Shown one piece after another: positions 5,315 through 61,300 of a DNA stretch of 64,000 bases. Positions within the stretch are counted from its first letter, which is position 1. Every line of letters starts with the position of its first letter. The position numbers and the translations under genes are program-made. The DNA comes from a virus. The DNA lies in the IMG/VR virus record IMGVR_UViG_3300028800_000069, positions 18,728 to 82,727 of that record. One strand, written 5' to 3'. A model generated the notes under the pieces. The model saw nothing but the letters and a program-made list of their open reading frames with translations. It made no database searches and was not told the DNA's origin.

Positions 5315-6005
5315 GCATTCGCTACTGTCAAGCTGACCACCCCATGGCATTCGCTATGCATTCGCCCTGCGTGCCCTATGCTCAGGTACTCACGGCGTAC
5401 GCCATACGCTTTCCCTTCGCTGCCGCTGCCGCTGGTGTCGAGGCAGGAGAGAGCAGAGCACAGGGTATTCGCCACGCATTCGCTATGTCATTGACAACAC
5501 AGGATCGAGGCATTCGCCACGCATTCGCTATGCAATGGTTGAGCGAGTGGCCAAGCGCATCCGAGGACATTGCTGTGGACAGGGGCGGGGAACCTGATCC
5601 CTAGCGAATACTTAGCGAACGCATTGCGGTGAGCGTAGCTAACGCCTAGGGGAATGAATAAGATAGAGCGAAGGAAAGGCAAAGCTATGTGCTACAACCT
5701 GTAGTGTTACACCATGTAACAAAGCAAGGCAAGGGCTGGGCATGTGCTAAGAGAATACCGTTTCAATATGATAGATAGGGTTCTGCCTTGCAATCCTGAA
5801 CTGGCTCGAAGCATGGCAAAGGTACGGCTGGGAACGGTGAAGGAACAATGCTACCGCATGGTATCTGCCTGTCTTCTCCTTCTATCAGTCACTCCGACTC
5901 ATGCGCGAGAATGCGAACGTACAGCGTACGCTTTGTGCTGGTGCTGGTGCTGGTGCATTGCCGATTCGAGAACAGAGAACGGCATAGCAGACGCGTGGCG
6001 AATGC
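5315..6005. repeat. Iteron-like GCATTCGC repeats, mostly as pairs 11 bp apart, in both orientations
   Basis: Copies at 5315, 5347/5358, 5465/5476, 5510/5521; inverted at 5604/5615 and 5987/5998. Confidence 0.75.
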
Positions 6006-17882: not shown

Positions 17883-19127
17883 GTGGAAAACCTGTTTGAA
17901 GTAATCGATGCAGGCAACGGAAAGATTGTGAAGGCGTGGAAGCGTGGTGTACCTTTCGAAGAGGGAGCCATAGAGCAACTGAAGAAGACCGCACAGATGC
18001 CGTTTGTGTTCCGCCACGTAGCAGCCATGCCAGATACGCACATAGGTGTGGGAGCCACGATTGGAACTGTGCTTCCGACCAAAGGAGCATGTATACCATC
18101 AGCCGTGGGAGTGGATTTAGGCTGTGGAATGATCGCACAGCGCTACACTTTCACACGCAAAGAACTGGAAGCCGTAGGACTTGCCAAGATTCGTGCCGCG
18201 ATTGAGGCGGCAGTACCGTGCGGACGAACCAACAACGGTGGGCCGGGAGATCGCGGAGCATGGGGCAACGTGCCTCAAAACATAGTAGATGTATGGGCAC
18301 GAGAGTTCAACGATGCGTACGAAATTATGTGTGCAAAGCATCCCGGCATGAAAGCACGCAACACATACAACCAGCTTGGCACACTTGGTACAGGAAACCA
18401 CTTCATCGAACTGTCCGAGGATGAGCAGGGGCGCGTGTGGCTAGTGCTGCATTCTGGATCACGAGGGCTGGGCAATAAGATCGGAGTGTATTTCACTGAT
18501 GTTGCCAAGCAGTTGTGTGCTAAATGGTTCATCACTCTGCCTGACCCTGACCTTGCGTATCTGCCTGTAGACACGCAGGAGTTTAAGGACTACAAAGATG
18601 CTGTGCAGTTGGCGCAGAGGTTTGCATGGCAGAATCGTTTGCTGATGGTAGATCGCATTCAGCACGTGCTGTCGGATGTAATGCATGAAGTTCAAGGAGT
18701 GCAGTGGGGAGCGATTGAAGAAGTCCACTGCCATCACAACTACATTTCATGGGAGAGACACTTTGGCGAAAACATCATGGTCACTCGCAAAGGTGCAGTT
18801 CGCGTGCAGGCTGGAGAGCTTGGCATTATCCCCGGCTCTATGGGAGCACGGACCTACATCGTTGAAGGCTTGGGAAATCGTGAATCATTCTGCACGTGTT
18901 CTCATGGAGCAGGCCGAGCTATGGGACGCAAGCAAGCTGAGCGGACCTTCACTGTTGCTGAGCATGCCGCTGCGACCGCAGGTATTGAGTGTGATAAGAC
19001 AGCGGATACGCTTGACGAAACCCCAGCTTGCTACAAGTCAATCGAAGCGGTAATGGCAGCGCAGGCAGACATCGTAAAACCTGTGCACATACTCAAACAG
19101 TTCCTTAACGTGAAAGGAAAGAAATAA
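17883..19127 (+). CDS. rtcB: RtcB RNA 3'-phosphate/5'-OH ligase
   Basis: MPDTH, VGVDLGCG, GTLGTGNHFIE, LHSGSRG, HHNY, RKGA, IPGSMG, SHGAGR, DETPACYK. Confidence 0.97.
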   Translation: MENLFEVIDAGNGKIVKAWKRGVPFEEGAIEQLKKTAQMPFVFRHVAAMPDTHIGVGATIGTVLPTKGACIPSAVGVDLGCGMIAQRYTFTRKELEAVGLAKIRAAIEAAVPCGRTNNGGPGDRGAWGNVPQNIVDVWAREFNDAYEIMCAKHPGMKARNTYNQLGTLGTGNHFIELSEDEQGRVWLVLHSGSRGLGNKIGVYFTDVAKQLCAKWFITLPDPDLAYLPVDTQEFKDYKDAVQLAQRFAWQNRLLMVDRIQHVLSDVMHEVQGVQWGAIEEVHCHHNYISWERHFGENIMVTRKGAVRVQAGELGIIPGSMGARTYIVEGLGNRESFCTCSHGAGRAMGRKQAERTFTVAEHAAATAGIECDKTADTLDETPACYKSIEAVMAAQADIVKPVHILKQFLNVKGKK

Positions 19128-19625: not shown

Positions 19626-20024
19626 ATGGCGAAGTGTAATACAGTAGACAGGGGGTTCTCCGTGGCGTTTGCTACGGCACAGCTAAGCGATGCGCCACGC
19701 GCAGGTTTGAAGATGGGAGCCGCGTTGTATAGTGGTTCCCGTCTTCTGTCTGTAGGAGCAAACCTGTACGGTCGCAGCCATCCGGCATCAGAGCAGTCGA
19801 ATGCATTCTGGCGCAGTACGCATTGCGAACACGTAGCGCTGTTGAAACGGCAGCACTACGACAACCCTAGCGGACTTACGCTGTACGTAGCACGTAGGCG
19901 CAAGGATGGCAGCATAGGCAGTTCAAGGCCCTGCAAGAATTGTGTAGACCTGTGCAGGCTGGCAGGAGTATCACGCGTGTGGTTTTATGATTCGTATGGC
20001 AACCGAGAGGAGATTGCACTGTGA
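19626..20024 (+). CDS. Zn-dependent cytidine/dCMP deaminase-family protein
   Basis: HCE (HxE) and SRPCKNC (PCxxC) motifs. Confidence 0.85.
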   Translation: MAKCNTVDRGFSVAFATAQLSDAPRAGLKMGAALYSGSRLLSVGANLYGRSHPASEQSNAFWRSTHCEHVALLKRQHYDNPSGLTLYVARRRKDGSIGSSRPCKNCVDLCRLAGVSRVWFYDSYGNREEIAL

Positions 20025-20344
20025 CCAAAGCAGAAGTATATGAAGCATGCCTGCACGCAACATTGTCCTTCAAAGGACTGCCGGAAGAGGAGATTAACTC
20101 TGGTCAATGCTTTGATTGGGCAACGATTGTGTTCGATCTAATCGAAGGCTCCAAGATTGCAGGCCACAACGTGAATGGCTGTGGGCATTGCTGGGTAGAG
20201 TACAAGGGACTGTGCTTCGACGCAGAGGTTCCACGAGGGGTCAAGGACTGGAAGACTCTGCCGTTCTGGAAGCGCATACGCAAAGAAGCTGGTGAAGAGG
20301 AATGGCAGGTTGCTGTGAAGCGCACTGCGTACTGTTGCAAGTAG
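20021..20344 (+). CDS. Hypothetical protein (transglutaminase/papain-like C-H-D pattern)
   Basis: NSGQCFDWA...GHCWV...FDAE. Confidence 0.6.
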   Translation: MTKAEVYEACLHATLSFKGLPEEEINSGQCFDWATIVFDLIEGSKIAGHNVNGCGHCWVEYKGLCFDAEVPRGVKDWKTLPFWKRIRKEAGEEEWQVAVKRTAYCCK

Positions 20345-20387: not shown

Positions 20388-20870
20388 ATGAGAGAACTGC
20401 CGCTAACCAAAGGCTACACAGCAATCTTAGATGACCGAGACTTTGCTGTTGTTTCCCAATACAAATGGCAAGCCCATGTTGCACCGAATACTGTGTATGC
20501 CTATCGCAGCATTTATGACGCAGGAAAACGAAAAAAGATGTATTTGCATCGCTTCTTGTTGGGCATAGAAGACCCAAAGGTAGAAGTAGATCATAAAGAT
20601 CGCAATGGTCTGAACTGCCGCCGTTACAATCTTAGGCCGAGCACCAAGGCTGACAACACCCACAATACCCGAGCACACAAAGATAGTTCTTCAGGTTTCA
20701 AAGGAGTATCGCGTAATCATGGCAAATGGATTGTCCAGATACGAGGTAAATGCATAGGCAGGTTTACTAATGCCTATGATGCAGCGCGTGCCTATGATGT
20801 GGCAGCACTGAAGTTCTTTGGGGAGTTTGCCAAAACCAACGTAATGCTTGGACTTCTGGAGGTACAATGA
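20388..20870 (+). CDS. HNH-AP2 homing endonuclease
   Basis: LHRFLL...VDHKDRNGLNCRRYNLR; AP2 GFKGVS...AARAYD..A..FFGEFA. Confidence 0.92.
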   Translation: MRELPLTKGYTAILDDRDFAVVSQYKWQAHVAPNTVYAYRSIYDAGKRKKMYLHRFLLGIEDPKVEVDHKDRNGLNCRRYNLRPSTKADNTHNTRAHKDSSSGFKGVSRNHGKWIVQIRGKCIGRFTNAYDAARAYDVAALKFFGEFAKTNVMLGLLEVQ

Positions 20871-25968: not shown

Positions 25969-26166
25969 ATGCAATCACGCACACCTGAAGGCAAGCACAC
26001 CAAGCGGTTCATCATCTTAGTCGCGGGATCGGACAAGCAATACGTTCGCTCTGGAAACGATGGGCTTAGAGGGTTTTTTGCCACGAAGGAAGAGGCTCAG
26101 GCCGCTCTGGAACCATCCAAGGGTTTGACCAGCACAGGTTTGACCTACAAAGTTCGACAGAAGTAA
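25969..26166 (+). CDS. Small basic protein
   Basis: AAGGAG RBS; FATKEEAQAAL. Confidence 0.65.
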   Translation: MQSRTPEGKHTKRFIILVAGSDKQYVRSGNDGLRGFFATKEEAQAALEPSKGLTSTGLTYKVRQK

Positions 26167-26186
26167 GTCACCAAGTTACACACGTC

Positions 26187-26620
26187 AAAGAATGATTGCA
26201 GCATTGCAACACCTCGGTTCGAATCCGAGCAGGTCCACCAAGGGACATACATGCTGTGTACAGGCATGACACTCAAGAGCGGCGGCTGGTTAACTCAGAC
26301 CGTGCAGCGTATCAGCGAAGAACTGGACCGCAGAGTGTAAGCTGGGGAACGGCATCCCTACTGTATGTATGCCCCTCGGTGGGCCTGATACTGGTTATCG
26401 ACTGCGATGGACTGAGATCATTTTCGTGTCGGATTCTGCCTCGCCACGTTACGGAGAGTCAAAACCAAAAATGCTAACGATAACATCGTTTCTGCACCCA
26501 TGAAGGCTATGGGCGCTGCTGCTGGTCGCTAAAGCAGTAGTGCAGTCTCACCACGCGGACCCCGGCTCAGTCCGGGGCCACCCGCAGTGGGAAAGTGTGG
26601 GGAGCAATACCAACGTCTGG
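26187..26620 (+). ncRNA. ssrA: Circularly permuted (two-piece) tmRNA: acceptor piece ~26187-26240, intervening segment 26241-26380, coding piece from 26381
   Basis: T-arm CTCGG-TTCGAAT-CCGAG then CAGGTCC-A-CCA lies upstream of GGGCCTG (7-bp acceptor stem, G3:U70); helix 2 TGCGATG/CATTGCA and ATCATT/AATGAT; tag 26473-26532 ANDNIVSAPMKAMGAAAGR*. 3' end approximate. Confidence 0.92.
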
Positions 26621-26639
26621 AGAATTAGAGGAACATTAA

Positions 26640-27704
26640 ATGGGTAAATTTATCACCAAGTTTGTGGGTACACTGTTTTTACTTGTAGCTAGTTGTTTTG
26701 GGCAAACGCAGGCTCCGCTGCTGGTAAACGGAGCAACGAATCCAACCGCCATACCGGATAACGCAGCATACAGTTTAGTTTTCAGAATGCTGGCTGCTCC
26801 GCTACAGACTCCTACTAGCACAAGAATAGGTTTAGTAGGATTGACTACTCCTGCTGATGTAACTGCGCTCACAAATAGCATGGGTTCATTTGCGACACAA
26901 GCGTTTAGTCAGCAGCCACCGGATCAACTAGCGCTAGGTCAACAGTACCTATCACAGCTTCAGGTGTCCATGACCGCCACAGGTATTGGACAGTTGCAAA
27001 CTTTTGTGCAGGCACAAAAATCACGCGCAGCAGAATGGGGAATGTTCTCTAAGGGCTGCACAGGTGGAGTGTATACTCTTTACACCTACACCTATGCATT
27101 TTCTGACGACTACGGAGATTCTAATTCTGATTGGGATTTCTATGGTGACGGAATAGGCGTAGGTACGTGCAACTGTAGCGTAACTGCCACTGGCTCATCT
27201 TTAACCATCGACTCCAACGTCACACATGGTGTTGTAAGAGGAAGTACAACCTATGTTGAAAAAATCATGGCCAATGGAGGCACCTCGCTGTTTGCTGGCA
27301 CAGGTGCAATAACAACAGAGTATTTCAGCTACTATTTCTACACGGGTTGCGTAGGGTCAGTTGTAGTTACGTGGTCGATACAAAATGAGTTTGCGTACAC
27401 TAAGTTTGCCAACGTTGGTCTTAGGCTTGGCGGTGGATGCCAAGTAGTACTTGGTTCTCCTGTCTGTACCTATTCTGTGACACCTATCTGTACAAACACT
27501 AACAGTCCTGACTGGAGATACCCCGGAGGGCCTATACCTGATGCATGGATACGTGACTATGATTTTCTTGCTTGGAGATCAGTAGGTGTGTGCACAAGAG
27601 TTGTTTTTGGAAGTACACACAGCACTTGGCTATGCATTAACTCAGTAGTTGGTACGATAGGCACCGGAGATTTGACACCGGGCATTTGTACGTACAACCC
27701 GTAA
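26640..27704 (+). CDS. Secreted Cys/Thr/Gly-rich protein (moron-like)
   Basis: GAGGA RBS; signal peptide; Cys-rich beta-type C-terminal half; own terminator. Confidence 0.75.
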   Translation: MGKFITKFVGTLFLLVASCFGQTQAPLLVNGATNPTAIPDNAAYSLVFRMLAAPLQTPTSTRIGLVGLTTPADVTALTNSMGSFATQAFSQQPPDQLALGQQYLSQLQVSMTATGIGQLQTFVQAQKSRAAEWGMFSKGCTGGVYTLYTYTYAFSDDYGDSNSDWDFYGDGIGVGTCNCSVTATGSSLTIDSNVTHGVVRGSTTYVEKIMANGGTSLFAGTGAITTEYFSYYFYTGCVGSVVVTWSIQNEFAYTKFANVGLRLGGGCQVVLGSPVCTYSVTPICTNTNSPDWRYPGGPIPDAWIRDYDFLAWRSVGVCTRVVFGSTHSTWLCINSVVGTIGTGDLTPGICTYNP

Positions 27705-27712
27705 ACGAGAGT

Positions 27713-27744
27713 GGGAGGGACAGAACATCGTCCCTTCCTATTAT
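27713..27744 (+). terminator. Probable terminator hairpin
   Basis: GGGAGGGAC/GTCCCTTCC stem, weak T tail. Confidence 0.5.
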
Positions 27745-27782
27745 GCAAGGAGAGACAGTGCCATATTTCAAAGGAGAACATC

Positions 27783-27980
27783 ATGAATAGACTTACCGCA
27801 TTAAGCAAGCTGGCAAATGCATACCATGATCAGTTAGCGCAACACGGATGCATGAGCGAAGCTGTAGCAATACTTGAAGAGAAATTTGGTTACATCCGTC
27901 GTAGCCTTACACTGCAAGACCTGAAGCCACAACCAAAGAACGCAGAGGGGCTGAACCCTGTCGGACCAAAGTTTTTCTAA
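27783..27980 (+). CDS. Hypothetical protein
   Basis: AAGGAG RBS. Confidence 0.65.
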   Translation: MNRLTALSKLANAYHDQLAQHGCMSEAVAILEEKFGYIRRSLTLQDLKPQPKNAEGLNPVGPKFF

Positions 27981-28025
27981 GCAGACACGCGGTTAACGAG
28001 ACCACCAGTCACAAAAAGGGGGAAT

Positions 28026-28247
28026 ATGAAAGCACTTGAGGCGAACAGAGAAGCAATCCGAAAGCGGTGTCTCGCTGTGGCTACTAAGTTCCCTGGCCTG
28101 TCCACGGCTGGTTTCTTCGCGGAGGTGTGGTGGGCGTTCTACCCGAGAGTGGATGAGGTAGACATCAAAGCCGAAGCCCTGCGAATGGTGCGTTACGGGG
28201 AACTGGTGTATACGGTCGATTACACGGTTGAACTACCGAAACAGTGA
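28026..28247 (+). CDS. Small hypothetical protein (wHTH-like), repeat-flanked
   Basis: RBS right after repeat; stop TGA is first 3 nt of next repeat. Confidence 0.7.
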   Translation: MKALEANREAIRKRCLAVATKFPGLSTAGFFAEVWWAFYPRVDEVDIKAEALRMVRYGELVYTVDYTVELPKQ

Positions 28248-28377
28248 CACGCGGTTCACGGCACCATACGGCGAGATTGGCCGTAGCGATACAGAACAAA
28301 CGTTGACACGCGGTTAACGAGACCACCAGTCAAGGAGAATTGTCGGGTACGAGATCAACACTGGTCAAAGGAGGTAT

Positions 28378-28584
28378 ATGCGAGAACTTATATGGCAGTT
28401 GCGTCTGTGGTGGAACGACATTTGCCCTAAGCATGGCCCGTTCTTCTCTTACTACTGCTCCCGATGCGACGCAGAAGAACATACGCAAAAGAAATTCGAA
28501 CGTGTGCAAAGACGAAAACGCAGAACCGAGATGTTCGACAGCTACAACACCAGTCAAAAGGAGAATCTGGGGAGAAGACAATGA
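28378..28584 (+). CDS. Small Zn-finger protein, repeat-flanked
   Basis: AAGGAGG RBS after half-site; CPKHG...CSRC. Confidence 0.65.
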   Translation: MRELIWQLRLWWNDICPKHGPFFSYYCSRCDAEEHTQKKFERVQRRKRRTEMFDSYNTSQKENLGRRQ

Positions 28585-28790
28585 GCAGCACGCCAACACT
28601 AGATAAATTTAACCTTCACCCCCTTGGTGGGCGTTGCACTTGCATCACCCACCCCTACAGTAAGTGCAGCACATGTGAGGCGATTAAAAATCTGCAAGCA
28701 AGGTGGGCGCGGCTATCGCCTGAAAATAGACAAAGGGCAATGGCCGAGCATGACGCAATGTACGCAACATCGAATCAGGACGGACGCTGA
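28581..28790 (+). CDS. Small Cys-rich protein, repeat-flanked
   Basis: ATGA overlap; CTC...CSTC; stop lies in repeat. Confidence 0.65.
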   Translation: MSSTPTLDKFNLHPLGGRCTCITHPYSKCSTCEAIKNLQARWARLSPENRQRAMAEHDAMYATSNQDGR

Positions 28791-28830
28791 CCAGCGGTTC
28801 ACGACACCACTGGTCAAAGGAGAAATTTTA

Positions 28831-29001
28831 ATGTGTGATTGCGACGTGTACATTGACATTCTGAAGGATTGTCGAGATGCACTCAAGCTACTGCGAGAAT
28901 GCTTCGGCGACGATGGTAACCTCTCGGAACAATATCAGGACCAACTGTCCTTCGCTCTTGAAAAAGCAGACGCAGCTATCGCAACGGAAGACAAAGCCTG
29001 A
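28831..29001 (+). CDS. Small helical protein, repeat-flanked
   Basis: AAGGAG RBS after repeat; stop lies in next repeat. Confidence 0.65.
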   Translation: MCDCDVYIDILKDCRDALKLLRECFGDDGNLSEQYQDQLSFALEKADAAIATEDKA

Positions 29002-29140
29002 CTAGCGGTCTGCTCAACCACCAGATAAGAGGGGCATAAATGAAACAACGCTACAAACAAGTGAAGATGCTGCACGTGAGCCTAGGGAGCCATGTGCGGC
29101 ACCTAATGGACATTTGGTTTGTCCTTACAGGGAGAGTGTG

Positions 29141-29875
29141 ATGCATGAGCAGAGCATAGTGGGCGAGGCGATTGCTGGGCGTTCTGCACAGGTGCGTAAG
29201 CAGCTTCTACGCATGGCGTTCAGCATGAACATCTCGACTTTCGATATGATCGAACTTTTAGCAGAAGCACAGGAAAACAACTACGCTTCCCAATGGGGAT
29301 TCTCCAGTCTGCTAGACTACGGTGCCGAGGAGCTAGGGCTGAAGAAACGTAAGACTCAGTACCTGACACGTATTGGAAAAGTAACGAAGGCCGTAGGGCT
29401 GACGCGTAGTCAGTACGAACCATCTGGTGTATCGAAACTACGAGAGATATGCGACTCCTTGGACCCAGAGTCAACGTACTGGAATCCTGACACGCACGCC
29501 AATGAGGACATGGCCGAGCACATCGTCCGGCTCATACTAGACTCAGACAAGATGACCGTGGAGCAAATCAAAGAAGAGGTTCTGCGATTGCAAGGCAGAC
29601 TCGGAGCAGACCGCCCAGTCCATCGCACCACAACGTACCCACGCTCTGTGTGGGAGAACGTCATTAAGCCTGCACGAGAACTTGCACGGCATCTGCTAGG
29701 CAGTTCCGGCAGGGATGCAGATGGTAATGCAAAAGAGTATAGTGACGGAGCGTGCGATGAGGTTATATGTGCCGCATTCCTAGCAGATTTGAACAACGCG
29801 GAAGACCCCGGAGATGTAGCTGCTTCACAAGAGACACCACAAGCACCACCAATTCTACCAATGGAGAGTATATGA
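29141..29875 (+). CDS. Hypothetical protein, possible HTH DNA-binding protein
   Basis: GFSSLLDYGAEELGLKKRKTQYLTRI helix-turn-helix-like segment; TGATG coupling to a 33-aa ORF at 29040-29141. Confidence 0.7.
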   Translation: MHEQSIVGEAIAGRSAQVRKQLLRMAFSMNISTFDMIELLAEAQENNYASQWGFSSLLDYGAEELGLKKRKTQYLTRIGKVTKAVGLTRSQYEPSGVSKLREICDSLDPESTYWNPDTHANEDMAEHIVRLILDSDKMTVEQIKEEVLRLQGRLGADRPVHRTTTYPRSVWENVIKPARELARHLLGSSGRDADGNAKEYSDGACDEVICAAFLADLNNAEDPGDVAASQETPQAPPILPMESI

Positions 29876-30375
29876 CACTAAAGCAGCACGACAAGCACTT
29901 GCTAAGAGGACAGTATCTGGAAGAGATGACTTCAAACGGTAGTATTCTTGATGCTGCTGGACCAACTCCCGATGGTCTGGGTACTTGGGAAGGTGGTCCT
30001 GTTGCATTAAAGGGAAGCCCTCGCTGGGTTGCTGAGAAGTCGCACAGCAGCCGCACAGGTAATGCCAAGAACACGCCGGGGATCGACTATGCCACGAAGA
30101 TCACGCACCGTCAGGACGCGGACTTCAGTGAAGTTCGTGTCATAGAGAACGGTGATGTGATGCTGTACAATGTCAAGACAGATGCGTGGGACATCAAAGG
30201 TGACACTGTGGACATTCCACACTACATCGATGAGAACGACAAAGAATGGGCATTCAACTTCGAGACAGCAGAGTGGGACGTTCCAGTTGAAGAACTCAAC
30301 CAAAACGAAGAGGTAGGTGTTGTGGAAGTTGAACGCCTAGACTCAGGTGACGACATTGCTTCAGCGATTGCCTGA
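29872..30375 (+). CDS. Acidic hypothetical protein
   Basis: GGAG RBS, ATGA overlap. Confidence 0.65.
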   Translation: MTLKQHDKHLLRGQYLEEMTSNGSILDAAGPTPDGLGTWEGGPVALKGSPRWVAEKSHSSRTGNAKNTPGIDYATKITHRQDADFSEVRVIENGDVMLYNVKTDAWDIKGDTVDIPHYIDENDKEWAFNFETAEWDVPVEELNQNEEVGVVEVERLDSGDDIASAIA

Positions 30376-30387
30376 TAAGGAGAACGC

Positions 30388-30915
30388 ATGAAAAGAGGCT
30401 TTGATTTACTAGGAAAACGTTTTGGTCGTTTAGTGATCACTGCCGAACTAAGTCACCCTGTGGGTGTAATGTGCCACAGGGTGTGGGTTGCAGTGTGTGA
30501 TTGCGGAGAGTACACCAAAGTGTTGTCTGGAAACTTACGTGGGGGTCACATAAAAAGCTGTGGGTGCCTTGGTGCAGAGCTAAGAAAGAAACGACCATAC
30601 GAAGCGATATACAACAGACTAGTTAGAGCATCTGTGCGTACGCAAGGTAAACCTCTTCTGTATGAAGATTTCCTACCATTCACAAAGGTTGTAGAGTGTC
30701 ATTACTGTGGTGCAGAAGTAATGTGGACAAAACACTTCAAAACATGCAGAGGTTCGTCTAGGTACAACCTTGACCGCAAAGACAACGCAAAAGGGTATAC
30801 CAAAGAAAACTTGATAGTATGTTGCAGGTTGTGTAACTTTACCAAAGGAGACCGCTTTACCTACATGCAGTTTGTTGAGATAGGAAAAGTGATAAGGTCT
30901 TTCCGTGAGTCTTAG
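30388..30915 (+). CDS. HNH-type homing endonuclease
   Basis: GKRFGRLV...CDCG...SCGC; CHYCG...LDRKDNAKGYTKENLIVCCRLCNFTK. Confidence 0.88.
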   Translation: MKRGFDLLGKRFGRLVITAELSHPVGVMCHRVWVAVCDCGEYTKVLSGNLRGGHIKSCGCLGAELRKKRPYEAIYNRLVRASVRTQGKPLLYEDFLPFTKVVECHYCGAEVMWTKHFKTCRGSSRYNLDRKDNAKGYTKENLIVCCRLCNFTKGDRFTYMQFVEIGKVIRSFRES

Positions 30916-31192
30916 ACTACCTATAGAAGAGTACACAGCACTTTGTAAAGCTGTTTTGCAACGAGATGGGCATAGATGCCGTAGCTGTGGAATGCGCTCA
31001 GGGCTTCACTGCCATCATGTTGTTTTCAGAAGCCAAGGAGGAGAAGACACTATGGAAAACCTTTGCACTTTGTGCTCAAGTTGTCACTCTGGTGTCCACA
31101 CAGCAGTAAAGAACGGGGAGTATGGCTTGGTGATTACCATGGACATAAACGGGTTTACGTTCAGGCGTGCAGCTTGGTGGAGACCCCAATGA
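30905..31192 (+). CDS. Small HNH endonuclease
   Basis: RDGHRCRSCG...HCHHV.FRSQGG...NLCTLCSSCH. Confidence 0.9.
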   Translation: MSLRLPIEEYTALCKAVLQRDGHRCRSCGMRSGLHCHHVVFRSQGGEDTMENLCTLCSSCHSGVHTAVKNGEYGLVITMDINGFTFRRAAWWRPQ

Positions 31193-31204
31193 GCTACGAG
31201 GAGA

Positions 31205-31804
31205 ATGTCAATGCGAAGGAACTATTTCCTATTCGTGCTCTTGCTTTTGCTCTGCTGCAATGCCGAAGCGAAAAGGAAGCATTACAAGTCATTAAGTATT
31301 TTGCAACCAAGCCATCAATCCCTGCTCCTTCAGAACGAGACGATCAACAAGATGGGGCTGGAGCGCATTGGAGATGAGCGTAGACTTTCATATTTGGTAG
31401 AGACGGAAAGACTCGTAGCCCTCCCCATAACCGATGCGGTGAAAATCGCGCCAAGTCTTCCGTCTAACAGACGCTATGCGCTTCCCTTGGTCACCTCCTT
31501 CCTTGGGAAGCTAGCGTCTGAGTACTACGCAGAGTTCCACCAGCCCTTAATGGTGGACTCCGCTGTGCGACCGATGACAGTTCAGAAGAAGCTACGCAGA
31601 CGCAATGCGAGTGCCGCGCCTGTGCAAGGAGAGACAGCCAGCAGTCATATGGCAGGGTGTACAATAGACCTGTCCAGACGAATGACCAAACGTCAGACGC
31701 GGTGGATTGAATGGAGACTCGCGTACTACGTACTGCAGCAGTCAGTGCTGGTTGAGGAAGAAAGACATTGCTTTCACATCATGGTGACCAAGGAGATTGA
31801 ATAA
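31205..31804 (+). CDS. Signal-peptide-bearing M15-like (DUF5715-type) peptidase
   Basis: DSAVR...Q..LRRRN..AA...SSH..G.TID...EE..CFHI Zn-peptidase pattern. Confidence 0.75.
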   Translation: MSMRRNYFLFVLLLLLCCNAEAKRKHYKSLSILQPSHQSLLLQNETINKMGLERIGDERRLSYLVETERLVALPITDAVKIAPSLPSNRRYALPLVTSFLGKLASEYYAEFHQPLMVDSAVRPMTVQKKLRRRNASAAPVQGETASSHMAGCTIDLSRRMTKRQTRWIEWRLAYYVLQQSVLVEEERHCFHIMVTKEIE

Positions 31805-32457
31805 TGGAATTGCCCGGATTAGCAAAGGCATTGTATGGCATGACCAGAGCAGAGGCCATTACCGAAGGAATCTGCATCGACTGCAAGAAGACTGCGACGT
31901 GGTATAGCCCAGCAGGTGCCAAGGAGTACCGCATCTCTGGACTATGCGAACCATGCTTTGACAAAATCACAGGAGGACCGGACGAAGTGGACAGGAGAGG
32001 TAGTGACACTACAGGAACCATACGAGGAGACCACGCTCTGTTTGCAGAAGCGTACCTTAGACAAACAGGCATGGATGACCAGTGGCAGGTAGTCGTAGCA
32101 GACGATAAGACGCTGATGCTGGACTATGACAACAGGCCCTACGATGGTACTCTACCAGAGCAGTTCTACAGCACACTGGGAATCTTTGACCAAGTAGTAG
32201 GCAGTGATAATTACTTTACACACACTGCTTCCAAAGGCGGCAACACACACGTTGTGATTAATATGAGCGTTGCTCTGACAATCGCTGAGCGTATCGCGTG
32301 GCAAGCTGCATTTGGTTCAGACCCCAAGCGAGAAGCTTTGCACTTGCTAAGCGTATCACGTGACGAACTGAACCCTATCCTGCTATACATGCGCAAGCCT
32401 GAGCCACAGAAACTGCTAGGAGACGGCAATGCCGATAGACAACCTGACCAAAGTTAA
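31804..32457 (+). CDS. Hypothetical protein with N-terminal Zn finger
   Basis: CIDC...KEYRISGLCEPCFD; C-terminal LDYD...SKGGNTH. Confidence 0.7.
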   Translation: MELPGLAKALYGMTRAEAITEGICIDCKKTATWYSPAGAKEYRISGLCEPCFDKITGGPDEVDRRGSDTTGTIRGDHALFAEAYLRQTGMDDQWQVVVADDKTLMLDYDNRPYDGTLPEQFYSTLGIFDQVVGSDNYFTHTASKGGNTHVVINMSVALTIAERIAWQAAFGSDPKREALHLLSVSRDELNPILLYMRKPEPQKLLGDGNADRQPDQS

Positions 32458-32851
32458 CGCCTACGGACAGCCTATCAATGTGTCTATAGTCGTACGCGCT
32501 CTGATAGGAGCCATGAGGGACCACGAGGTTCCTGCGTACGCACGCATGCACGAGGCTCAGCGAGTGTCGTGGCACATGTGCGCAGTTATGTGCAACACAG
32601 TAGAGTTCAATCCTGATGAACTGCCAAACTACCCGTTCATCAAAGAGACCGTAGGTGGAGTGCCGCTGGTAGTAGACAACAAACTATGGCCGAGCACCAT
32701 CGTGTTCCACAATGCAGAGGGCAAAGCAGTGGCTCGTATTCAGGGCTTAGCAGTGCCTGTAGGTTTTGATGACTACCCAGCAATATGGAACAGCAAAGAC
32801 CAAGCAGAGTACGAGAAACGCATCATAGACGAGGGATGGAAATTCGAGTAA
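32429..32851 (+). CDS. Hypothetical protein
   Basis: AGGAG RBS. Confidence 0.65.
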   Translation: MPIDNLTKVNAYGQPINVSIVVRALIGAMRDHEVPAYARMHEAQRVSWHMCAVMCNTVEFNPDELPNYPFIKETVGGVPLVVDNKLWPSTIVFHNAEGKAVARIQGLAVPVGFDDYPAIWNSKDQAEYEKRIIDEGWKFE

Positions 32852-32865
32852 CCCAAAGGAGACCT

Positions 32866-33297
32866 ATGATTTCTAACACGAAGTCCACAAGCATTGAATC
32901 TTACGCCATAACCAAGACTACCAATCTAGATAAAGACCTGCTGCTAATAGAAACAGCAGCAGAGAAGGTACCTACGTTCACTGTGGACGAGCTAAGGCAG
33001 GACATACTGGACGCTAACCCGTCTCTAAAAGGTAAAGATGAGATCGGAGCACGTGTTAAAGATGCACAGCGCATCCACGGTTCTGTACAGAAGACAGGGA
33101 TCAAACGAGAGAGTAAATGCAGCGGAAGAAAAGCATTTGAGTGGTCCTTTGTGCTGCCAATAGGGCGCACAGATGCACGCCGCGCGTATTGGGAAGAACG
33201 TGCGGCAGGGTTGGAAGCTGATTATCAACAGGCGCGGAGAAAGTTGTACCGCGACGCAGCTAAAGCTGGATTCCCAATAGTAACGTTAGAAACCTAA
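32866..33297 (+). CDS. Hypothetical protein (wHTH-like)
   Basis: AAGGAG RBS. Confidence 0.6.
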   Translation: MISNTKSTSIESYAITKTTNLDKDLLLIETAAEKVPTFTVDELRQDILDANPSLKGKDEIGARVKDAQRIHGSVQKTGIKRESKCSGRKAFEWSFVLPIGRTDARRAYWEERAAGLEADYQQARRKLYRDAAKAGFPIVTLET

Positions 33298-33307
33298 GGA
33301 GAACACT

Positions 33308-35155
33308 GTGCTAGAGCTACGACCAAGACAAATCGAATGCCTTGACTCTATTCGCAACGAGTACTTGGCTGGAACCTACCAGCAACTCGTCGTAGCCGCT
33401 ACAGGTATCGGTAAGGCGGTGATCCTTGCGAACATCAGACGCTACATGCTGGACCTTCTCCCCGGCAAGATGCTGGTGTTCGCACACCGCGACGAACTGG
33501 TAAAGCAACTGATTGAAACACTGCGTGAGTGGAACCCCGATTGGAAGATCGGCAAGGAGATGGCAAATGAATACGCTGATGTTGATTGTGACATCGTGGT
33601 TAGTTGCAATGCTAGTATTGGTCGTGACGGGGCTGCTCGTCTCGGTAGGTTTGGTGGTTTTGATTGCGTCGTTTGTGATGAAGCGCATCACTCTATTGCG
33701 TCAACGTATCTTAACGTATTCGAGCAAACGGGGGTATTAAAACCTGACTCTACGCGCCTGCTGGTCGGATTCACAGCAACGCCCAAGCGCAAGAACCTGA
33801 CGCGCAACCAGAAGAAGCAGTTGACCGTTCTGGACGACGAAGAGCTTCTGTCTCTGAAGTCGGTGTACAAGAAGATAGTATTCAACTACCCAATCCGCAA
33901 GGCAATCAAAGAGGGCTGGCTAGTTCCTCTACATGGTTTTCGGTTGAAGACTAAAGTAGACCTGAGCAACATCAAGACCACTGCTGGGGATTACCAGCAG
34001 GATGAGCTAGAGACCACGGTTAACACTCCTGAGCGCAACTACGCGGTAGTCAATGCGTGGCGCAAGGACTGCGAGAATCGCCAAACGGTGGTGTTCTGCG
34101 TGCAGATTCAGCACGCTAAGGACATGGCCGAGGCGTTCCGCGCCATGGGAGTAAATGCGCAGGCGATATGGGGAGTTGACCCGGAGCGTGCAACGAAGTT
34201 AGCCAAGCATAAAGCAAAAGAGATTACTGTGCTATGCAATGCACAACTGTTGACGGAGGGTTATGATGACTGGCGAGTCTCATGCATTGTCGATGCAGCA
34301 CCAACTAAAAGCCCTAGCAAATACACTCAGTGCATCGGTCGAGGTACACGCCTTCAGGCAAGCACAGGAAACCTTCTTGAAGCAATTCAACGAGGGCTTA
34401 GGTTGGAAAAGCAAGATTGCATTATCGTGGATGTTGTCGATAACAACCGCCGCTGCTCCCTCGTCACCTTGCCTAGTCTTCTCGGACTCAACCCTGAGAT
34501 GGACCTGCAGGGTAAGTCTGTCACAGCGGTTGCTGATAAGATGGAAGAGTTGCAAGAGAAGTATCCAACGATTGATCTTTCGCAACTGACGGACATCACC
34601 AAGGTAGATGCCTACATCGAGAGCCTTGATTTGTTCGCTGCACCGTACACGGAAGAAGTAGAGAAGTTCTCTAAGCTTACGTGGATGGGATGTAGCGATG
34701 GGTCATACGTACTTCAGATTCCTGAAAGCAAAACTCTGAAGGATGCCAAAGCGTTCTCTAGATTCAAACACGAGAGGCTTAACATTACTGCAAACGATCT
34801 GGATGAGTACGTATTGTCCATTTCCTCCACCAGCGTTGAGGACAAGCAGCTAGGCATATACAACACACTTCAAGAGGCGTTTACATCAGCCGATGAAGTC
34901 ATGCAAAGGTGCCGTCCAGACCGTATGAAACTGGTGACGCGAGAGGCAGAGTGGCATACATACCCTGCCACGGACCCTGCAAAGAAATTGCTAAGGTCAC
35001 TAAGCAAGAATACACCTGTGTTATACTGTCTGTGTCCTAACCCAACTCATAAGACGCTCCCAGCGATGTGTCCTGTATGCAGACTTCAGACAGGCATAAC
35101 CGCTGGCCAAGCAAGCGTAGCGATCAACCTTCTTCAAGCGAGGAGAAAACGATGA
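33308..35155 (+). CDS. Superfamily 2 DEAH helicase
   Basis: LRPRQ, ATGIGKA, DEAHH, TATP, LTEGYD, QCIGRGTR. Confidence 0.95.
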   Translation: MLELRPRQIECLDSIRNEYLAGTYQQLVVAATGIGKAVILANIRRYMLDLLPGKMLVFAHRDELVKQLIETLREWNPDWKIGKEMANEYADVDCDIVVSCNASIGRDGAARLGRFGGFDCVVCDEAHHSIASTYLNVFEQTGVLKPDSTRLLVGFTATPKRKNLTRNQKKQLTVLDDEELLSLKSVYKKIVFNYPIRKAIKEGWLVPLHGFRLKTKVDLSNIKTTAGDYQQDELETTVNTPERNYAVVNAWRKDCENRQTVVFCVQIQHAKDMAEAFRAMGVNAQAIWGVDPERATKLAKHKAKEITVLCNAQLLTEGYDDWRVSCIVDAAPTKSPSKYTQCIGRGTRLQASTGNLLEAIQRGLRLEKQDCIIVDVVDNNRRCSLVTLPSLLGLNPEMDLQGKSVTAVADKMEELQEKYPTIDLSQLTDITKVDAYIESLDLFAAPYTEEVEKFSKLTWMGCSDGSYVLQIPESKTLKDAKAFSRFKHERLNITANDLDEYVLSISSTSVEDKQLGIYNTLQEAFTSADEVMQRCRPDRMKLVTREAEWHTYPATDPAKKLLRSLSKNTPVLYCLCPNPTHKTLPAMCPVCRLQTGITAGQASVAINLLQARRKR

Positions 35156-40019: not shown

Positions 40020-40498
40020 TGATCTACATTGGAATCGATCCGGGCTTGAGCGGAGCGGTGGGGGTGTTGATACCTAATGAGGGTGTAATGGTGTATGACA
40101 CTCCTACTGCCGTCGTTGAAGGTGAGAAAACAAAACGCAGGTATCTCTTTGGGTCTATGGCAGCATTGTTGAGGCCATATATTGGTAAAGATGTACTGGC
40201 AGTGCTGGAGAACGTTCATTCGATGCCGAAACAGGGAGTGGCATCATCATTCTGCTTCGGTGAAGGAAAAGGCGTGTGGGAAGGTATTCTAGCTGCGTTC
40301 GAAATACCTACAGAGCTAGTATCCCCACAGCGCTGGAAGAAAGAGATAATGGCAGACCAAGGAAAAGAAAAGAGCGCAGCCAGATTCAAGGCGATGGCTC
40401 TGTTCCCGTCCTTGGCAGATCAATTGAAACTGGTGAAGCATGACGGCAGAGCGGAAGCTTTGCTAATGGCAGTGTACGGACAACGATTGAGAAAGTGA
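40019..40498 (+). CDS. ruvC: RuvC-like Holliday junction resolvase
   Basis: IGIDPGLSGA, LENV, FCFG, PQRWKK, DGRAEALL. Confidence 0.9.
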   Translation: MIYIGIDPGLSGAVGVLIPNEGVMVYDTPTAVVEGEKTKRRYLFGSMAALLRPYIGKDVLAVLENVHSMPKQGVASSFCFGEGKGVWEGILAAFEIPTELVSPQRWKKEIMADQGKEKSAARFKAMALFPSLADQLKLVKHDGRAEALLMAVYGQRLRK

Positions 40499-49273: not shown

Positions 49274-49344
49274 TGGCGCGGACGGAAGGAGTCGAACCTT
49301 CACTCAGGGTTTTGGAGACCCCTCGGCACTCGGTGCGCGTCCGC
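49274..49344 (-). tRNA. tRNA-Trp(CCA) with reduced D-arm
   Basis: GCGGACG/CGTCCGC-G-CCA; anticodon loop CTCCAAA; T-arm GAAGG-TTCGACT-CCTTC; D-arm GCAC-CGA-GTGC. Confidence 0.8.
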
Positions 49345-49424
49345 TGGGGTGACGAGTGGGAGTTGAACCCACCAGACGACAGCTTCACAGGCTGCGGCAA
49401 CGTCCCCAGAGTTGCCATCGTCAC
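49345..49424 (-). tRNA. tRNA-His(GTG)
   Basis: GTGACGA/TCGTCAC-C-CCA; anticodon loop CTGTGAA; T-arm GTGGG-TTCAACT-CCCAC. Confidence 0.85.
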
Positions 49425-58394: not shown

Positions 58395-61300
58395 TTATCG
58401 GATTTTACCGAGTGGTGCCTTCTTTTTCTTCTCACCAAGTTTTTCTAGAGGAGAGGCTTCAGGTTCGAACTCTTCTGGGTTGAACCTAACCGATTCATCG
58501 CGTAGCTGCGTGAGGTGTCCCCCTCCGGGGTTGTTCCTGTGCTCGAAGGCTGGGTTTTCTCTGAAGAGGTTCCCTTGGATTGACTTTGGTTCTGGGATTG
58601 CCCCTTTACCTCTGGCTTCTTCGATGCGGCTTCTAAGTTGCCCAGTACTGTGAGCAGTAGTTGGCGTACTTCTGCCGGAGACTTTTGGCTTGTTTTCGAT
58701 TGCTCCGAGTTTGCTGTCGAGTTGGTCAAGGTTGACTCCTAGTCCTTTGAGTAGGTCTCTAGTTTCGAGATCATTTTCTAACAGGTCTTTGAAGTCCTCA
58801 GAGTAGTGACGTACAATCTCCGGGTCTTCTACACCTTTCTCCGTAAGCGCTTGTGTGAATGACCAGATTGCGGCTTGCGCTTCTTCTGGTTCCCAACCAA
58901 GTGCTTCGGCTGCTGCACGAGTAGCTACGGACAGTGGGTGGTAGTTCTCTGGGCGAGAAAGCGCAGACTTGTCGATACCGCCGAACAGGCCCATCCAACT
59001 ATCGTTGGTTACGTTCTTCGTACCAGTGGATTCTCCACCTATCCATTTGCGTAAGTTCTCTGCGAAGGACGGTGCCTTGAACGCTGCGTTCTTAGTCAGG
59101 TCCGGCCACATCTGTTCTCCGTTGAGAGCTTTGATGATGTTTGGCACCTTGGCCTCCGGTAGAGTGAGATTCTTCAGTAGAAGATTCTCTGCTTTCCACT
59201 TTGTACCTGTAGGTGCGTAGTCCCAGTGCATTGAGGCACCTTTTTTCATGCCTCGTGCTCTTGGGCTTCCATCATCTTTCCACGCCTTGTCGGCTTCTTC
59301 ACCAAACTCTTTCCATTTGTCTATGGAGAAGTTAGGACGACCTGCGTCGTGCCATGCTTTCCAAAAACCAAGCGTCTCGCGTAGGTTCATTGCCACGGAC
59401 TGTTGCGGAGAACTTCCCGCCAGCACGCCCATGAACTTCTGCTTGTCGCTTTCTTTGAAATAGTCAGGTGCTTCTTCGTGCATTGCGTCGAATGCTGCAG
59501 TGCTACGGCTATACCACTTTCTAGAACCTTCGCCCTGTAGAGCGGCGTCGATGTACTCTTGCACCGTTGGAATGTTCTCCATGTTCTGGATAAATTTTTG
59601 GGTTCCAGCCGTACGGGGTTTTCCCGTAGCGGTAGTAGTGATACTTGCCTTCTCTTCTTCGGTCAAGTGCTTTTGTGCCAAGTCAGGTAGACTAGACTTC
59701 AGGTCTTCTACAGTCATCTTGCCAATCGACATAGGTGCTGCAGCGGCTGCGGAGCCTCCACTTACCGTGGGGTTTCCATTCTCATCGATGGGTGAACCTT
59801 TGTCGTTCAATATAGGAGCAAGACTACGTAAAGAGTTCTCCAAGTTTTCCTTGGAAGACTCTCCGTAAGGTATGACCTTGTATTCGCCTCCCGGCTTGCC
59901 TACTTCAATGAGAACTGCCCCACTTGATAGCTGTGGTGCCATCTTTTGAATGTAAGCTAACTGCTTGGCGTTTACTCCTGACTCTGGAATAGAGATTGAA
60001 ACCTCTCGGCCTCCCTTTCCTCCAGAGCGTGGTCGTACACGAATGTTTCCCTCGGCTACGAACTGCTCACGTGGCGGGTTCTTGTCGGTAGCTTTACCGC
60101 CCAGCATGATGTCGTGGTCTGTCCCCGTGTTAGCCACTCCTCTTCCATCCTTAAGAATGAAAGTGGTGTGTGCAGGGTCTCCACTAGACTCGCCATACTT
60201 CTTGATCAGAGCGTCACCTGTGGGTAACTTCTTTTCAGGTGCTCCGCCACTTACCGTTGGGTTCTTAGACTCTCCGGGGTACACTTCCATACCATTATCA
60301 TCGGCCCACCCATGCACAGCATTTTTTACCTGTTCATAGGTTCCTGTTTTGCTAAACACGGTTTTGAACCGTTGTTTAGGGTCACTAATTTCTAGTGTGG
60401 TTTCAGGTCTACCCAAAGCATCAGCCACTCTAAGCGCTTTAGCAATGGTTCCTGCTGGTGCCCCTGCATGAATGTCTATGCCAGCTTCTTCCGGTCCTGT
60501 AGTGAAGGCTCTGATGCCACCTGCCTCTTGGAATTTGTGGTAGTCTCCAGTAGGGTCATAATCAGAAAAGTCACCACTCTCGTCTTGGTACTTAGACAAT
60601 TCTTTGTCTGTATGGTTGTCCAGTATCTGGTTGAACAAGGAAGAGTGCGTGTAATCTTCGGCAGAAGGATCATAATCGTCGTAGGAGTGTACATTTCCCT
60701 CCGGTGTTACAATTATAGTTCCTTTGTCATTTATACTCTTCAGTTTTTCTCTAGCAGAAGGTTGTAACTCATGGGTGAAACCCTCTGGAGGTGCATTGTG
60801 TTCCTTTGTAGCTGTGCCTTCTTCTGGTTTGTACAGAGTTTGACTTCCAGCAGGTTGCTTTTTCTGTCCTTGGAAGCTATTGGGGTCACTAGCGTATGCC
60901 TCTGCTGCTTGCTTTGCTTCGGCTCTAGTTTCGTAATTCCCAAGATGCTCCTCATAGGAGAAAGTAGCTGCTGTGCCTTTGCGGTTAGCTGTGTCCCCTA
61001 TTGCCCTAAAACCTTCTGGAGACTTAACAACAAACCTCATAGCCCTAGCGTTCGGCTCTGCGGTAACCTCTGGGACAATCTCACCAAACTTATTGACACG
61101 ACCAGTTGTAGGCTTGTCACTTTTTTCACCTGTGCCACCAGTTTGTATTTCACCTTCACCGCCTAGGTGATAGATGCTCTTCTGGTTTGCGGCTTTGCCT
61201 GCTGCTATGGCTTCGTCGCGGTCGGTGTATAGCTTGGTAACATCGAGAACTGCTTTGCCAGTGTCTGGGTCTTTCCAAGTACCGACCGCGTGTCCTTCCT

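Follow-up and report, generated by a model that had tools for sequence, protein, structure and literature searches.

A 29-bp dyad between stop codon and ribosome-binding site recurs at joints between small accessory genes of uncultured phages

The 64,000-nucleotide (nt) stretch analysed here (hereafter the window) comprises positions 18,728 to 82,727 of IMG/VR record IMGVR_UViG_3300028800_000069 (G000), an 82,727-bp sequence of a tailed phage that is rated 75% complete, and it contains a compact array of small genes punctuated by a repeated 29-bp motif. Five full sites of an 11-7-11 layout (two 11-bp arms around a 7-bp spacer) and two right half-sites, all on the + strand, span positions 27983–29027, and this array is the sole such locus in the 82.7-kb record. 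It is flanked by an open reading frame (ORF) of 354 amino acids (aa) on one side and by a 244-aa gene on the other. The features of the array are listed below, in which SD denotes a Shine-Dalgarno sequence.

27783..27980, + strand: ORF of 65 aa, first of the block; ends in TAA 3 nt before site 1; no Pfam match
27983..28011, + strand: site 1, full 11-7-11, AGACACGCGGT-TAACGAG-ACCACCAGTCA; spacer class TAACGAG
28026..28247, + strand: ORF of 73 aa; its stop codon is the TGA of site 2; another upstream neighbour in contig L040
28245..28273, + strand: site 2, TGACACGCGGT-TCACGGC-ACCATACGGCG; left arm and spacer intact, right arm decayed past motif position 22
28274..28303, + strand: non-coding remnant; with site 2 it makes up the 59-bp 'empty' unit ahead of site 3
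28304..28332, + strand: site 3, full; matches site 1 at 28/29 nt; AGGAGA follows, but no credible start codon
28357..28367, + strand: right half-site AACACTGGTCA, immediately ahead of the SD of ORF 28378
28378..28584, + strand: ORF of 68 aa; no relative but itself among 5.8 billion proteins
28546..28556, + strand: right half-site AACACCAGTCA, in the 3' end of ORF 28378 and ahead of the SD of ORF 28581
28581..28790, + strand: Cys-rich ORF of 69 aa; ATGA overlap with ORF 28378; its stop codon is the TGA of site 4
28788..28816, + strand: site 4, full, TGACCAGCGGT-TCACGAC-ACCACTGGTCA; spacer class TCACGAC; arms pair at 10/11 positions
28831..29001, + strand: ORF of 56 aa; its stop codon is the TGA of site 5
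28999..29027, + strand: site 5, TGACTAGCGGT-CTGCTCA-ACCACCAGATA; outer right arm GATA in place of GTCA
29040..29141, + strand: ORF of 33 codons; its TGA overlaps the ATG of the 244-aa gene

The initial annotation of this DNA, made from its letters alone, had listed five full sites and half-sites at 28357 and 28546, and all of them were recovered at those positions and on the + strand. Its description of the locus was borne out in other respects as well: the leading TGA of the motif is the stop codon of the upstream gene in three copies (sites 2, 4 and 5, for ORFs 28026–28247, 28581–28790 and 28831–29001), most copies are followed by an SD-like purine run (AGGAG, GGGGG or AGGGG), the near-empty 59-bp unit is real, and the small ORFs between the sites are unrelated, as no blastp family joins any two of them. 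None of the small ORFs of the array (65, 73, 68, 69, 56 and 33 aa) has a Pfam match. With at most one mismatch allowed, the 17-nt core of the motif gave 9 matches in the window against 3.77 expected, the clustered ones being the five array copies, all on the + strand; over the whole record the arms-only pattern with at most three mismatches returned the five array sites, against 0.2 in 20 mononucleotide shuffles. The exact core is found in the array and once elsewhere in the record, there with an unrelated spacer. Relatives at 70% identity were found for ORF 28581, one of which (L139:3109-3312) is located in an unrelated 65.9-kb phage contig, within a tightly overlapping operon that again has the ATGA overlap and carries no trace of the motif.

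Scanning beyond the record, which the initial annotation had suggested, placed these five sites within a dispersed family. Scans with exact patterns yielded the IMG/VR records G001, G002 and G003, the loci L027–L029 and 29 metagenome contigs; G001 and G002 are rated 100% complete, all completeness ratings being the collection's own figures. The relatives are all metagenomic fragments retrieved by the motif itself, and one of them, L057, repeats the window region almost identically and is thus not independent. An arms-only rescan with at most three mismatches to the arms, on which the family counts are based, gave 67 unique sites in 32 loci, all from uncultured phages, and 59 distinct aligned sites. 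Each locus holds up to five unique sites (L041 has six copies in the raw scan), at a median spacing of 339 bp. The consensus reads TGAC-NN-G[C/T]GGT, a 7-nt spacer, and ACC[A/G]C-NN-GTCA; 4 columns are invariant across the 59 distinct sites, 9 more are at least 90% conserved, and the mean column identity is 81%. The 11-7-11 layout holds throughout the distinct sites, and a few variant sites have spacers of 4, 12 or 16 nt. The spacers fall into discrete classes, namely TAACGAG (26 of the 67), TCACGAC (23), CTGCTCA (5), TCACGAG (4) and TACCGAA (3); the CTGCTCA spacer of window site 5 also occurs in other loci.

The position of the motif relative to genes is also conserved. At 38 of the 67 sites an upstream ORF with 30 or more codons ends in frame with the motif's TGA, and at 8 the upstream stop is a TAA within the TAACGAG spacer. 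An SD and a start codon follow at 56/67 sites, at a median distance of 13 nt, and this association is not a matter of ascertainment, because the retrieval patterns ended at GTCA and included neither SD nor start codon. The downstream ORFs are diverse and small (median 74 aa for the 50 complete unique ones), and the orientation of the motif is always that of the downstream gene; even in G002, where sites occur on both strands, each one points along the local genes. Partial copies consist of the left arm alone in 14 cases and of the right arm alone in 3, two of the latter being those of the window. Left arms are more alike within a locus (identity 0.827) than between loci (0.770), an excess reached in 0/1000 label permutations, and the spacers and right arms show no such excess. 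This left-arm asymmetry is explained in part by upstream gene ends that are paralogous, for example in L051; the remainder may reflect breakage preferentially close to where left arm and spacer meet. At L050:879 and L050:4549 the left arm and spacer are followed by a second palindrome (GTTCACG..CGTGAAC), which may be a different partner element.

Outside these phages the motif was not encountered. The strict pattern gave 0 matches in 185,579 species genomes, a 35-nt motif query returned only chance-level matches among cultured phages, and the motif does not occur as a sequence string in the literature text searched. A loose arms-only scan of the same species genomes returned 76 stretches, which are mostly perfect GC-rich palindromes and include one from Acidobacteriota; a dif-like or repetitive extragenic palindromic (REP)-like counterpart in a host was rejected on these grounds. 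In assemblies of Acidimicrobiia and other Actinomycetota (L081, L084, L097, L102 and others), that scan also met a perfect palindrome, TGACTCGCGGT-N7-ACCGCGAGTCA, in numerous copies whose loops vary. This palindrome family looks REP-like and unrelated to the phage motif, which it resembles because the search pattern forced the likeness. Taken with its placement, the motif is a conserved, oriented and phage-only boundary element made up of a stop codon, a dyad and a ribosome-binding site (RBS).

Comparison of the flanks revealed that homology between phages ends at or inside the sites. In contigs L033, L053 and L058 the end of the upstream gene and the motif are identical, and the genes that follow are three unrelated ones. 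A 57-aa cassette is 96% identical over 245 nt between L033 and L041, the match beginning 2 nt ahead of one motif and ending at position 26 of the following one, and both of its flanks are unrelated. The 73-aa gene of the window recurs in L040, 99% identical from motif position 2 and behind different cassettes, and the end of the same gene in L038 is followed by an intact site and another gene where the window has the decayed site 2 and the 59-bp remnant, the break lying at motif position 22. A common upstream gene and left arm are found in L041 and L058, which differ from position 11 onward, with a TAACGAG spacer in the former and CTGCTCA in the latter. An 84-nt patch of 92% identity is the sole stretch common to the complete and otherwise unrelated genomes G001 (40325-40408) and G002 (59079-59162; loci L006 and L009); the patch consists of the motif, the SD and 13 opening codons (MKTVDTYTATIYV), and beyond it the genes diverge completely. 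The joints that could be placed thus lie at motif positions 1-2, 11, 22, 26 and 29-30, although identity between motif copies masks most of the true crossover points.

The arrays themselves occupy three different backbone positions. That of G000 lies upstream of the 244-aa gene; that of L050 lies between homologues of 30905-31192 and 31205-31804, which are neighbours in G000; and that of L044 lies between a homologue of 20021-20344 and the exonuclease. Related phages match up to a site and then differ, and therefore gene content varies with breakpoints at the sites; the motif marks joints where small genes are gained, lost or replaced between phages. The initial annotation had asked whether content varies with breakpoints in the 7-bp spacer: content does vary at the sites, and the joints that could be placed are scattered across the motif. 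Its stated refutation, the same order of genes throughout the relatives, is therefore not what these comparisons show.

Whether the dyad acts as a hairpin or is read as sequence could be addressed with the 59-site alignment. For an 11-bp helix, 72.4% of the cells pair, compared with 74.5% in column shuffles, and 499/500 shuffles scored at least as high; on the complementary strand the pairing is 78.9% against 81.0% in shuffles. No covariation between the arms was detected on either strand among these sites. Positions 5 and 6 are unpaired in 49/59 and 44/59 sites, the combinations at position 8/22 (C.A 35, T-A 11 and C-G 7 of 59) show no significant linkage, and the loop and mismatch positions are conserved as sequence. 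Seven RNA folds in the window gave z-scores of -0.15 to +0.38 in six cases and -1.73 for site 4; site 4 and the G002 site at 5445 are able to form stems of 10–11 bp. Rfam has no family match in the array region, and no T-run follows the motif at the five window copies. A hairpin on the bottom strand, where the C.A of position 8/22 would become G.U, was considered and rejected, since the pairing does not exceed that of shuffles there either and the missing combination is expected only about twice. The single point that favours a stem-loop is the retention of both arms at the few sites with 4-, 12- or 16-nt spacers. The dyad symmetry is therefore a property of the consensus that is not kept by compensatory change, in agreement with the initial view that arm pairing is not maintained and that a protein site fits better than a hairpin. 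With no excess of pairing and no covariation, recognition as sequence is favoured, most simply by a protein on duplex DNA.

A search for enzymes that might act at the sites gave few candidates. PF00589, the tyrosine-recombinase family, has a match in G003 only among the four records (G000–G003), and neither PF00239 (resolvase) nor PF01797 (Y1 transposase) matches in any of them; the absence of PF01797, together with the lack of strict matches in the species genomes, led us to discard a REP element with a REP-associated tyrosine transposase. In G003, a 298-aa integrase and a NUMOD4-HNH gene adjoin the array. An ERF-family annealing protein and a YqaJ exonuclease are encoded just upstream of two of the sites in G002, and a PHROG 'exonuclease' lies 3 kb upstream of the array in G000. 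Homologues of the 95-aa HNH protein encoded at 30905-31192 of the window are found near the arrays of L027, L030, L033 and L050; this family was not found in G001–G003. Most motif-bearing genomes thus have no recognisable dedicated recombinase. The initial annotation had likened the array to an integron and proposed capture or shuffling by a tyrosine recombinase. The cassette-like part of that proposal stands, since gene content differs and breaks fall at or inside the sites; the integron mechanism is not supported, the R' box discussed below being present in 0/59 sites. A tyrosine recombinase found no support either, PF00589 being absent from G000 (75% complete), G001 and G002, and one that depends on spacer identity should not join the same gene and left arm to TAACGAG in one phage and to CTGCTCA in another, as is seen here.

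As for transcription, none of the promoter-like sites listed by a sigma-70 scan begins at one of the five window copies, although the host promoter consensus may differ. Sigma-70 region 2 is not matched in G000, and no match above the family cut-off was obtained in the four records, that of G002 lying below it. The T7-type RNA polymerase family PF00940 gave no match, but its control matched in no genome either. A transfer RNA (tRNA)-arm mimic, a CtrA or LexA box and a promoter of the extracytoplasmic-function sigma type were judged by eye, from their consensus sequences, to be poor fits and were rejected. Within 27700-27782, ahead of the first small ORF, we observed a GC hairpin (gggagggacagaacatcgtcccttcc) and a weak promoter-like GGGACA-16-TATTAT (27717-27744), and this stretch may be the start of the array's transcription unit.

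Genes for replication and nucleotide metabolism form a block on the + strand and encode a DNA polymerase, RtcB, a protein with a ParB N-terminal domain, an exonuclease, a helicase, a primase-helicase and an RNA ligase. A gene for transfer-messenger RNA (tmRNA) of the permuted type is located 1.4 kb upstream of the array. Further features of the surroundings are as follows.

17883-19127: RtcB ligase
20388-20870, 30388-30915 and 30905-31192: three HNH endonuclease genes in the replication block, the latter two adjacent and overlapping
26148-26623, + strand: circularly permuted (two-piece) tmRNA gene; ARAGORN tag ANDNIVSAPMKAMGAAAGR; Rfam RF04321, 52.3 bits
29141-29875, + strand: 244-aa gene, the first past the array; homologue kept in L050
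38671-39816: RNA ligase
49274-49424: tRNA-Trp and tRNA-His genes

The tmRNA, RtcB, the RNA ligase and the two tRNAs make up an unusually rich RNA-repair and translation-rescue kit for a phage. By DNA polymerase, the closest cultured relatives are the Tunturiibacter (Acidobacteriota) phages Tunturi_3 and Tunturi_4, at 44–45% aa identity, in which the motif core pattern has 0 matches; this kinship is a weak hint that the host of G000 may belong to Acidobacteriota. No match to cultured phages was obtained by blastn of 26000-33900, a search for related loci through the 244-aa gene retrieved no relative, and the 319-aa and 244-aa neighbours fall only into unnamed viral clusters in the ESM Atlas, with leads below 0.9 to ParB-HTH/DUF3102. 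The giant ORF at 58395-63998 has no PDB, PHROG or Pfam assignment, and a virion polymerase of the N4 type that uses hairpin promoters was therefore dropped as unsupported. The stretch is present in 20 DNA runs labelled as rhizosphere metagenome, and no RNA run is listed for it. Contigs of 4 DNA runs covering 27300-29900 show no joints at the sites, the contigs being short and the depth low or patchy. Contigs of runs X12 and X16 match the window up to 27780 and then continue into unrelated sequence, so that this strain variant diverges before the first small ORF and not at the motif.

We favour, with a probability of roughly 0.5, the explanation that the motif is part of a portable boundary module (stop, site and RBS), analogous to elements described in T4-type phages and mycobacteriophages, that is swapped by general short-homology recombination. 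The module would consist of a stop codon (the TGA at motif positions 1-3 or the TAA in TAACGAG), the 29-bp quasi-palindromic 11-7-11 site, and an SD with a start codon, and it would punctuate the small accessory-gene arrays of a set of uncultured phages. A putative protein would read the site as sequence and most likely control the accessory-gene block, as an operator or as a road-block to elongation, a role modelled on what has been proposed for stoperators and for the extended start-associated sequences (ESAS) of mycobacteriophages; the operator array that the initial annotation named as its alternative forms part of this explanation. Because the same stretch of about 29 bp flanks every cassette, general short-homology recombination of the Erf/YqaJ annealing type, along with occasional illegitimate joins, could swap cassettes at the sites, as has been described for the T4-type elements, and each such exchange would leave the upstream gene correctly terminated and the downstream gene correctly initiated.

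Several points weigh against the portable module. The motif has neither a sigma-70-type promoter nor a supported stem-loop, which are the two defining parts of the T4-type element, and a reader protein is not evident. At phmmer E<=1e-3, the four records that carry the motif have no protein family in common. With 29 imperfect bp, the motif is close to the shortest length that annealing-type recombination can use. Where an array occupies a backbone position that is motif-free in relatives, events beyond motif-to-motif exchange are needed, and the asymmetries of the left arm (0.827 versus 0.770, and 14 versus 3 lone arms) are not predicted by simple homologous exchange. Moreover, G001 holds a single site, and therefore the motif is no general expression signal there.

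Other explanations account for parts of the same evidence. In a dedicated cassette-mobility system, a specific enzyme would excise and insert single-gene cassettes at the 29-bp sites. This enzyme could be a recombinase that went unrecognised, a host factor, or an HNH endonuclease whose nicks or cuts set off gene conversion. Such a system would fit the 11-7-11 layout with its similar, non-identical arms and discrete asymmetric spacer classes, the reading of the sites as sequence and not as hairpin, the cassettes that are 96–100% identical in different contexts, and the arrays at different backbone positions. It would also fit left arms that are homogenised within a locus when spacers and right arms are not (with lone left arms at 14 and right arms at 3), as well as the HNH family of 30905-31192 beside the arrays of L027, L030, L033 and L050 and the integrase and HNH genes beside that of G003; integron parts do occur in phages, according to the available text of one survey (PMC9892861). 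We nevertheless regard it as unlikely, given that none of PF00589, PF00239 and PF01797 is present in G000 or in G001 and G002, whose completeness is rated 100%, that no protein is common to all four records, and that the HNH family was not found in G001–G003. In addition, joint positions vary, L041 and L058 have different spacer classes behind a shared upstream gene and left arm, spacer length varies at a few sites, and no host group has a dif-like match (0 strict and 1 Acidobacteriota among 76 loose matches in the 185,579 species genomes). A more specific form, which we consider rather doubtful, would be an undescribed phage cassette system unrelated to integrons, in which an unrecognised enzyme (for instance one of the small array-side HNH nucleases, or a host factor) cuts at the left-arm/spacer boundary, so that single-gene cassettes (spacer, right arm, RBS, gene and left arm) move between co-infecting, otherwise unrelated soil phages. 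A functionless junction that hitch-hikes as cassettes are copied with their boundaries, persists briefly and decays would explain why decayed or partial copies are common (window site 2, the 14 left-arm-only and 3 right-arm-only copies), why the lone copy of G001 arrived with an 84-nt patch, and why a homologue of ORF 28581 is found in a motif-free phage (L139). It seems quite improbable, because neutral sequence would not stay so uniform across 59 sites (4 invariant columns and 9 more at 90% or above) between unrelated flanking genes and in phages that share almost no proteins.

The fixed place of the motif between stop codon and SD, and an orientation that always follows the gene, would equally suit punctuation at the RNA level of a polycistronic early transcript, whether through transcript processing, a hairpin that stabilises the RNA, or a translational repressor bound beside the SD, with shuffling as a by-product; the early RNase III sites of T7 are a precedent. 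The 10–11 bp stems that are possible at site 4 and at the G002 site 5445, the variation of position 8/22 as C.A 35, T-A 11 and C-G 7 of 59, and the arms kept at a few sites despite another spacer length are in its favour. We hold it to be improbable in view of pairing that stays below column shuffles on both strands, the lack of covariation, positions 5/6 that are unpaired in 49 and 44 of 59 sites, loop and mismatch positions that are conserved as sequence, and window folds of which 6/7 have z-scores near 0, with no Rfam match. A promoter for the host or phage RNA polymerase, one per small gene as in the T4-type element, is very hard to reconcile with the data: the left arm does contain a TGACA that is -35-like by eye, and the motif stands ahead of nearly every small gene, but no site of the sigma-70 scan begins at a motif copy and a -10-like element is lacking. 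The best-conserved part of the motif would then be the promoter spacer, no room is left for a leader because the SD begins 0–3 nt past the motif, and a sigma region-2 match above the family cut-off is missing from the four records, with none at all in G000.

Much of the 'dark matter' of phages consists of small accessory genes whose function is unknown, and only for a few model groups is it understood how such genes move from one phage to another. In the present case a single short and searchable motif marks exchange points in uncultured soil phages with otherwise almost no proteins in common, which makes it a handle for cataloguing the cassette pool and a testable case of boundary-mediated shuffling beyond the T4-type phages. 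If a dedicated enzyme were involved after all, it would be a new recombination tool.

Comparison with known systems places the motif most clearly when likeness and difference are taken together. The XerC/D sites dif and pdif have 11-bp arms around a short asymmetric spacer, and pdif copies bound accessory modules in Acinetobacter plasmids; pdif spacers are 6 bp long and the sites alternate in orientation, whereas the spacer of the phage motif is 7 bp, all its sites are direct, and no host group has a matching once-per-genome site. More generally, the core-site layout of tyrosine recombinases (arms of 11–13 bp around an asymmetric 6–8 bp spacer) is present, but a tyrosine recombinase was found in 1/4 records and no dif-like counterpart in hosts, although a divergent or host-supplied enzyme might act. 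Integron attC sites are about 57–141 nt long, compared with 29 nt for the phage motif. These sites, and clusters of attC sites lacking integron-integrases (CALINs), have been found in phage genomes, sometimes without a nearby integrase, as reported in the available text of Qi et al. (2023; PMC9892861), and they resemble the present arrays in that single small genes are separated by imperfect palindromes in one orientation. With the box definitions given in that text (R' GTTRRRY and R'' RYYYAAC), however, R' is found in 0/59 distinct sites and R'' in 6/59, all of the CTGCTCA or CCGCTCA spacer class. The phage motif is conserved in sequence and not in structure, the reverse of attC, and 3/4 records have no integrase; by the attC features compared, the R' box and pairing on either strand, the sites are not attC.

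The stoperators of Cluster A mycobacteriophages are short asymmetric sites of 13–14 bp, present in many copies in short intergenic gaps and in one orientation, spread genome-wide in temperate phages and bound by a monomeric immunity repressor that blocks elongation. They are a precedent for oriented intergenic protein sites, as far as the available account goes (PMC9283540). The phage motif is similar in its many copies in short intergenic gaps and in its single orientation relative to transcription; it differs in that its sites are 29-bp dyads restricted to one small-gene array, and no repressor was recognised.

Closer still are two elements associated with gene boundaries. The promoter early stem-loop elements (PeSLs) of T4-type phages combine a strong sigma-70 promoter with a stable terminator stem-loop (Arbiol et al., 2010, PMC2839356; Comeau et al., 2014, PMC4122927), and in the accessible parts of these reports they are, like the phage motif, repeated intergenic elements that lead from an upstream stop codon to the SD and start of a small ORFan, in plastic regions and at the boundaries of indels or replacements between relatives. 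The phage motif has no promoter-like site and no supported stem-loop, is shorter (29 bp), and is common to phages with almost no proteins in common. ESAS of Cluster K mycobacteriophages have 17-bp arms and spacers of 4–13 bp and are tied to a 13-bp start-associated sequence (SAS), GGGATAGGAGCCC (Pope et al., 2011, PMC3203893). The phage motif has 11-bp arms of unrelated sequence and a spacer that is nearly always 7 bp, it is followed only by a generic AAGGAG-type SD without an SAS, and no role at cassette joints is described for ESAS in the available portion of that report (PMC3203893). The function of ESAS still needs experimental verification, as the accessible text of a 2025 report puts it (PMC12699233). 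The likeness, within what these accounts describe, is nevertheless extensive: both are imperfect inverted repeats around a spacer, placed in one orientation just ahead of the SD and start of non-structural genes; in both the upstream stop can fall within the repeat and departures in the arms argue against RNA pairing; and both are absent from host genomes. By analogy, the motif appears much like the shuffling motifs already described in T4-type phages and mycobacteriophages, and as a second system besides ESAS in which a putative protein-read dyad stands right before the RBS, it might help to find the function of both.

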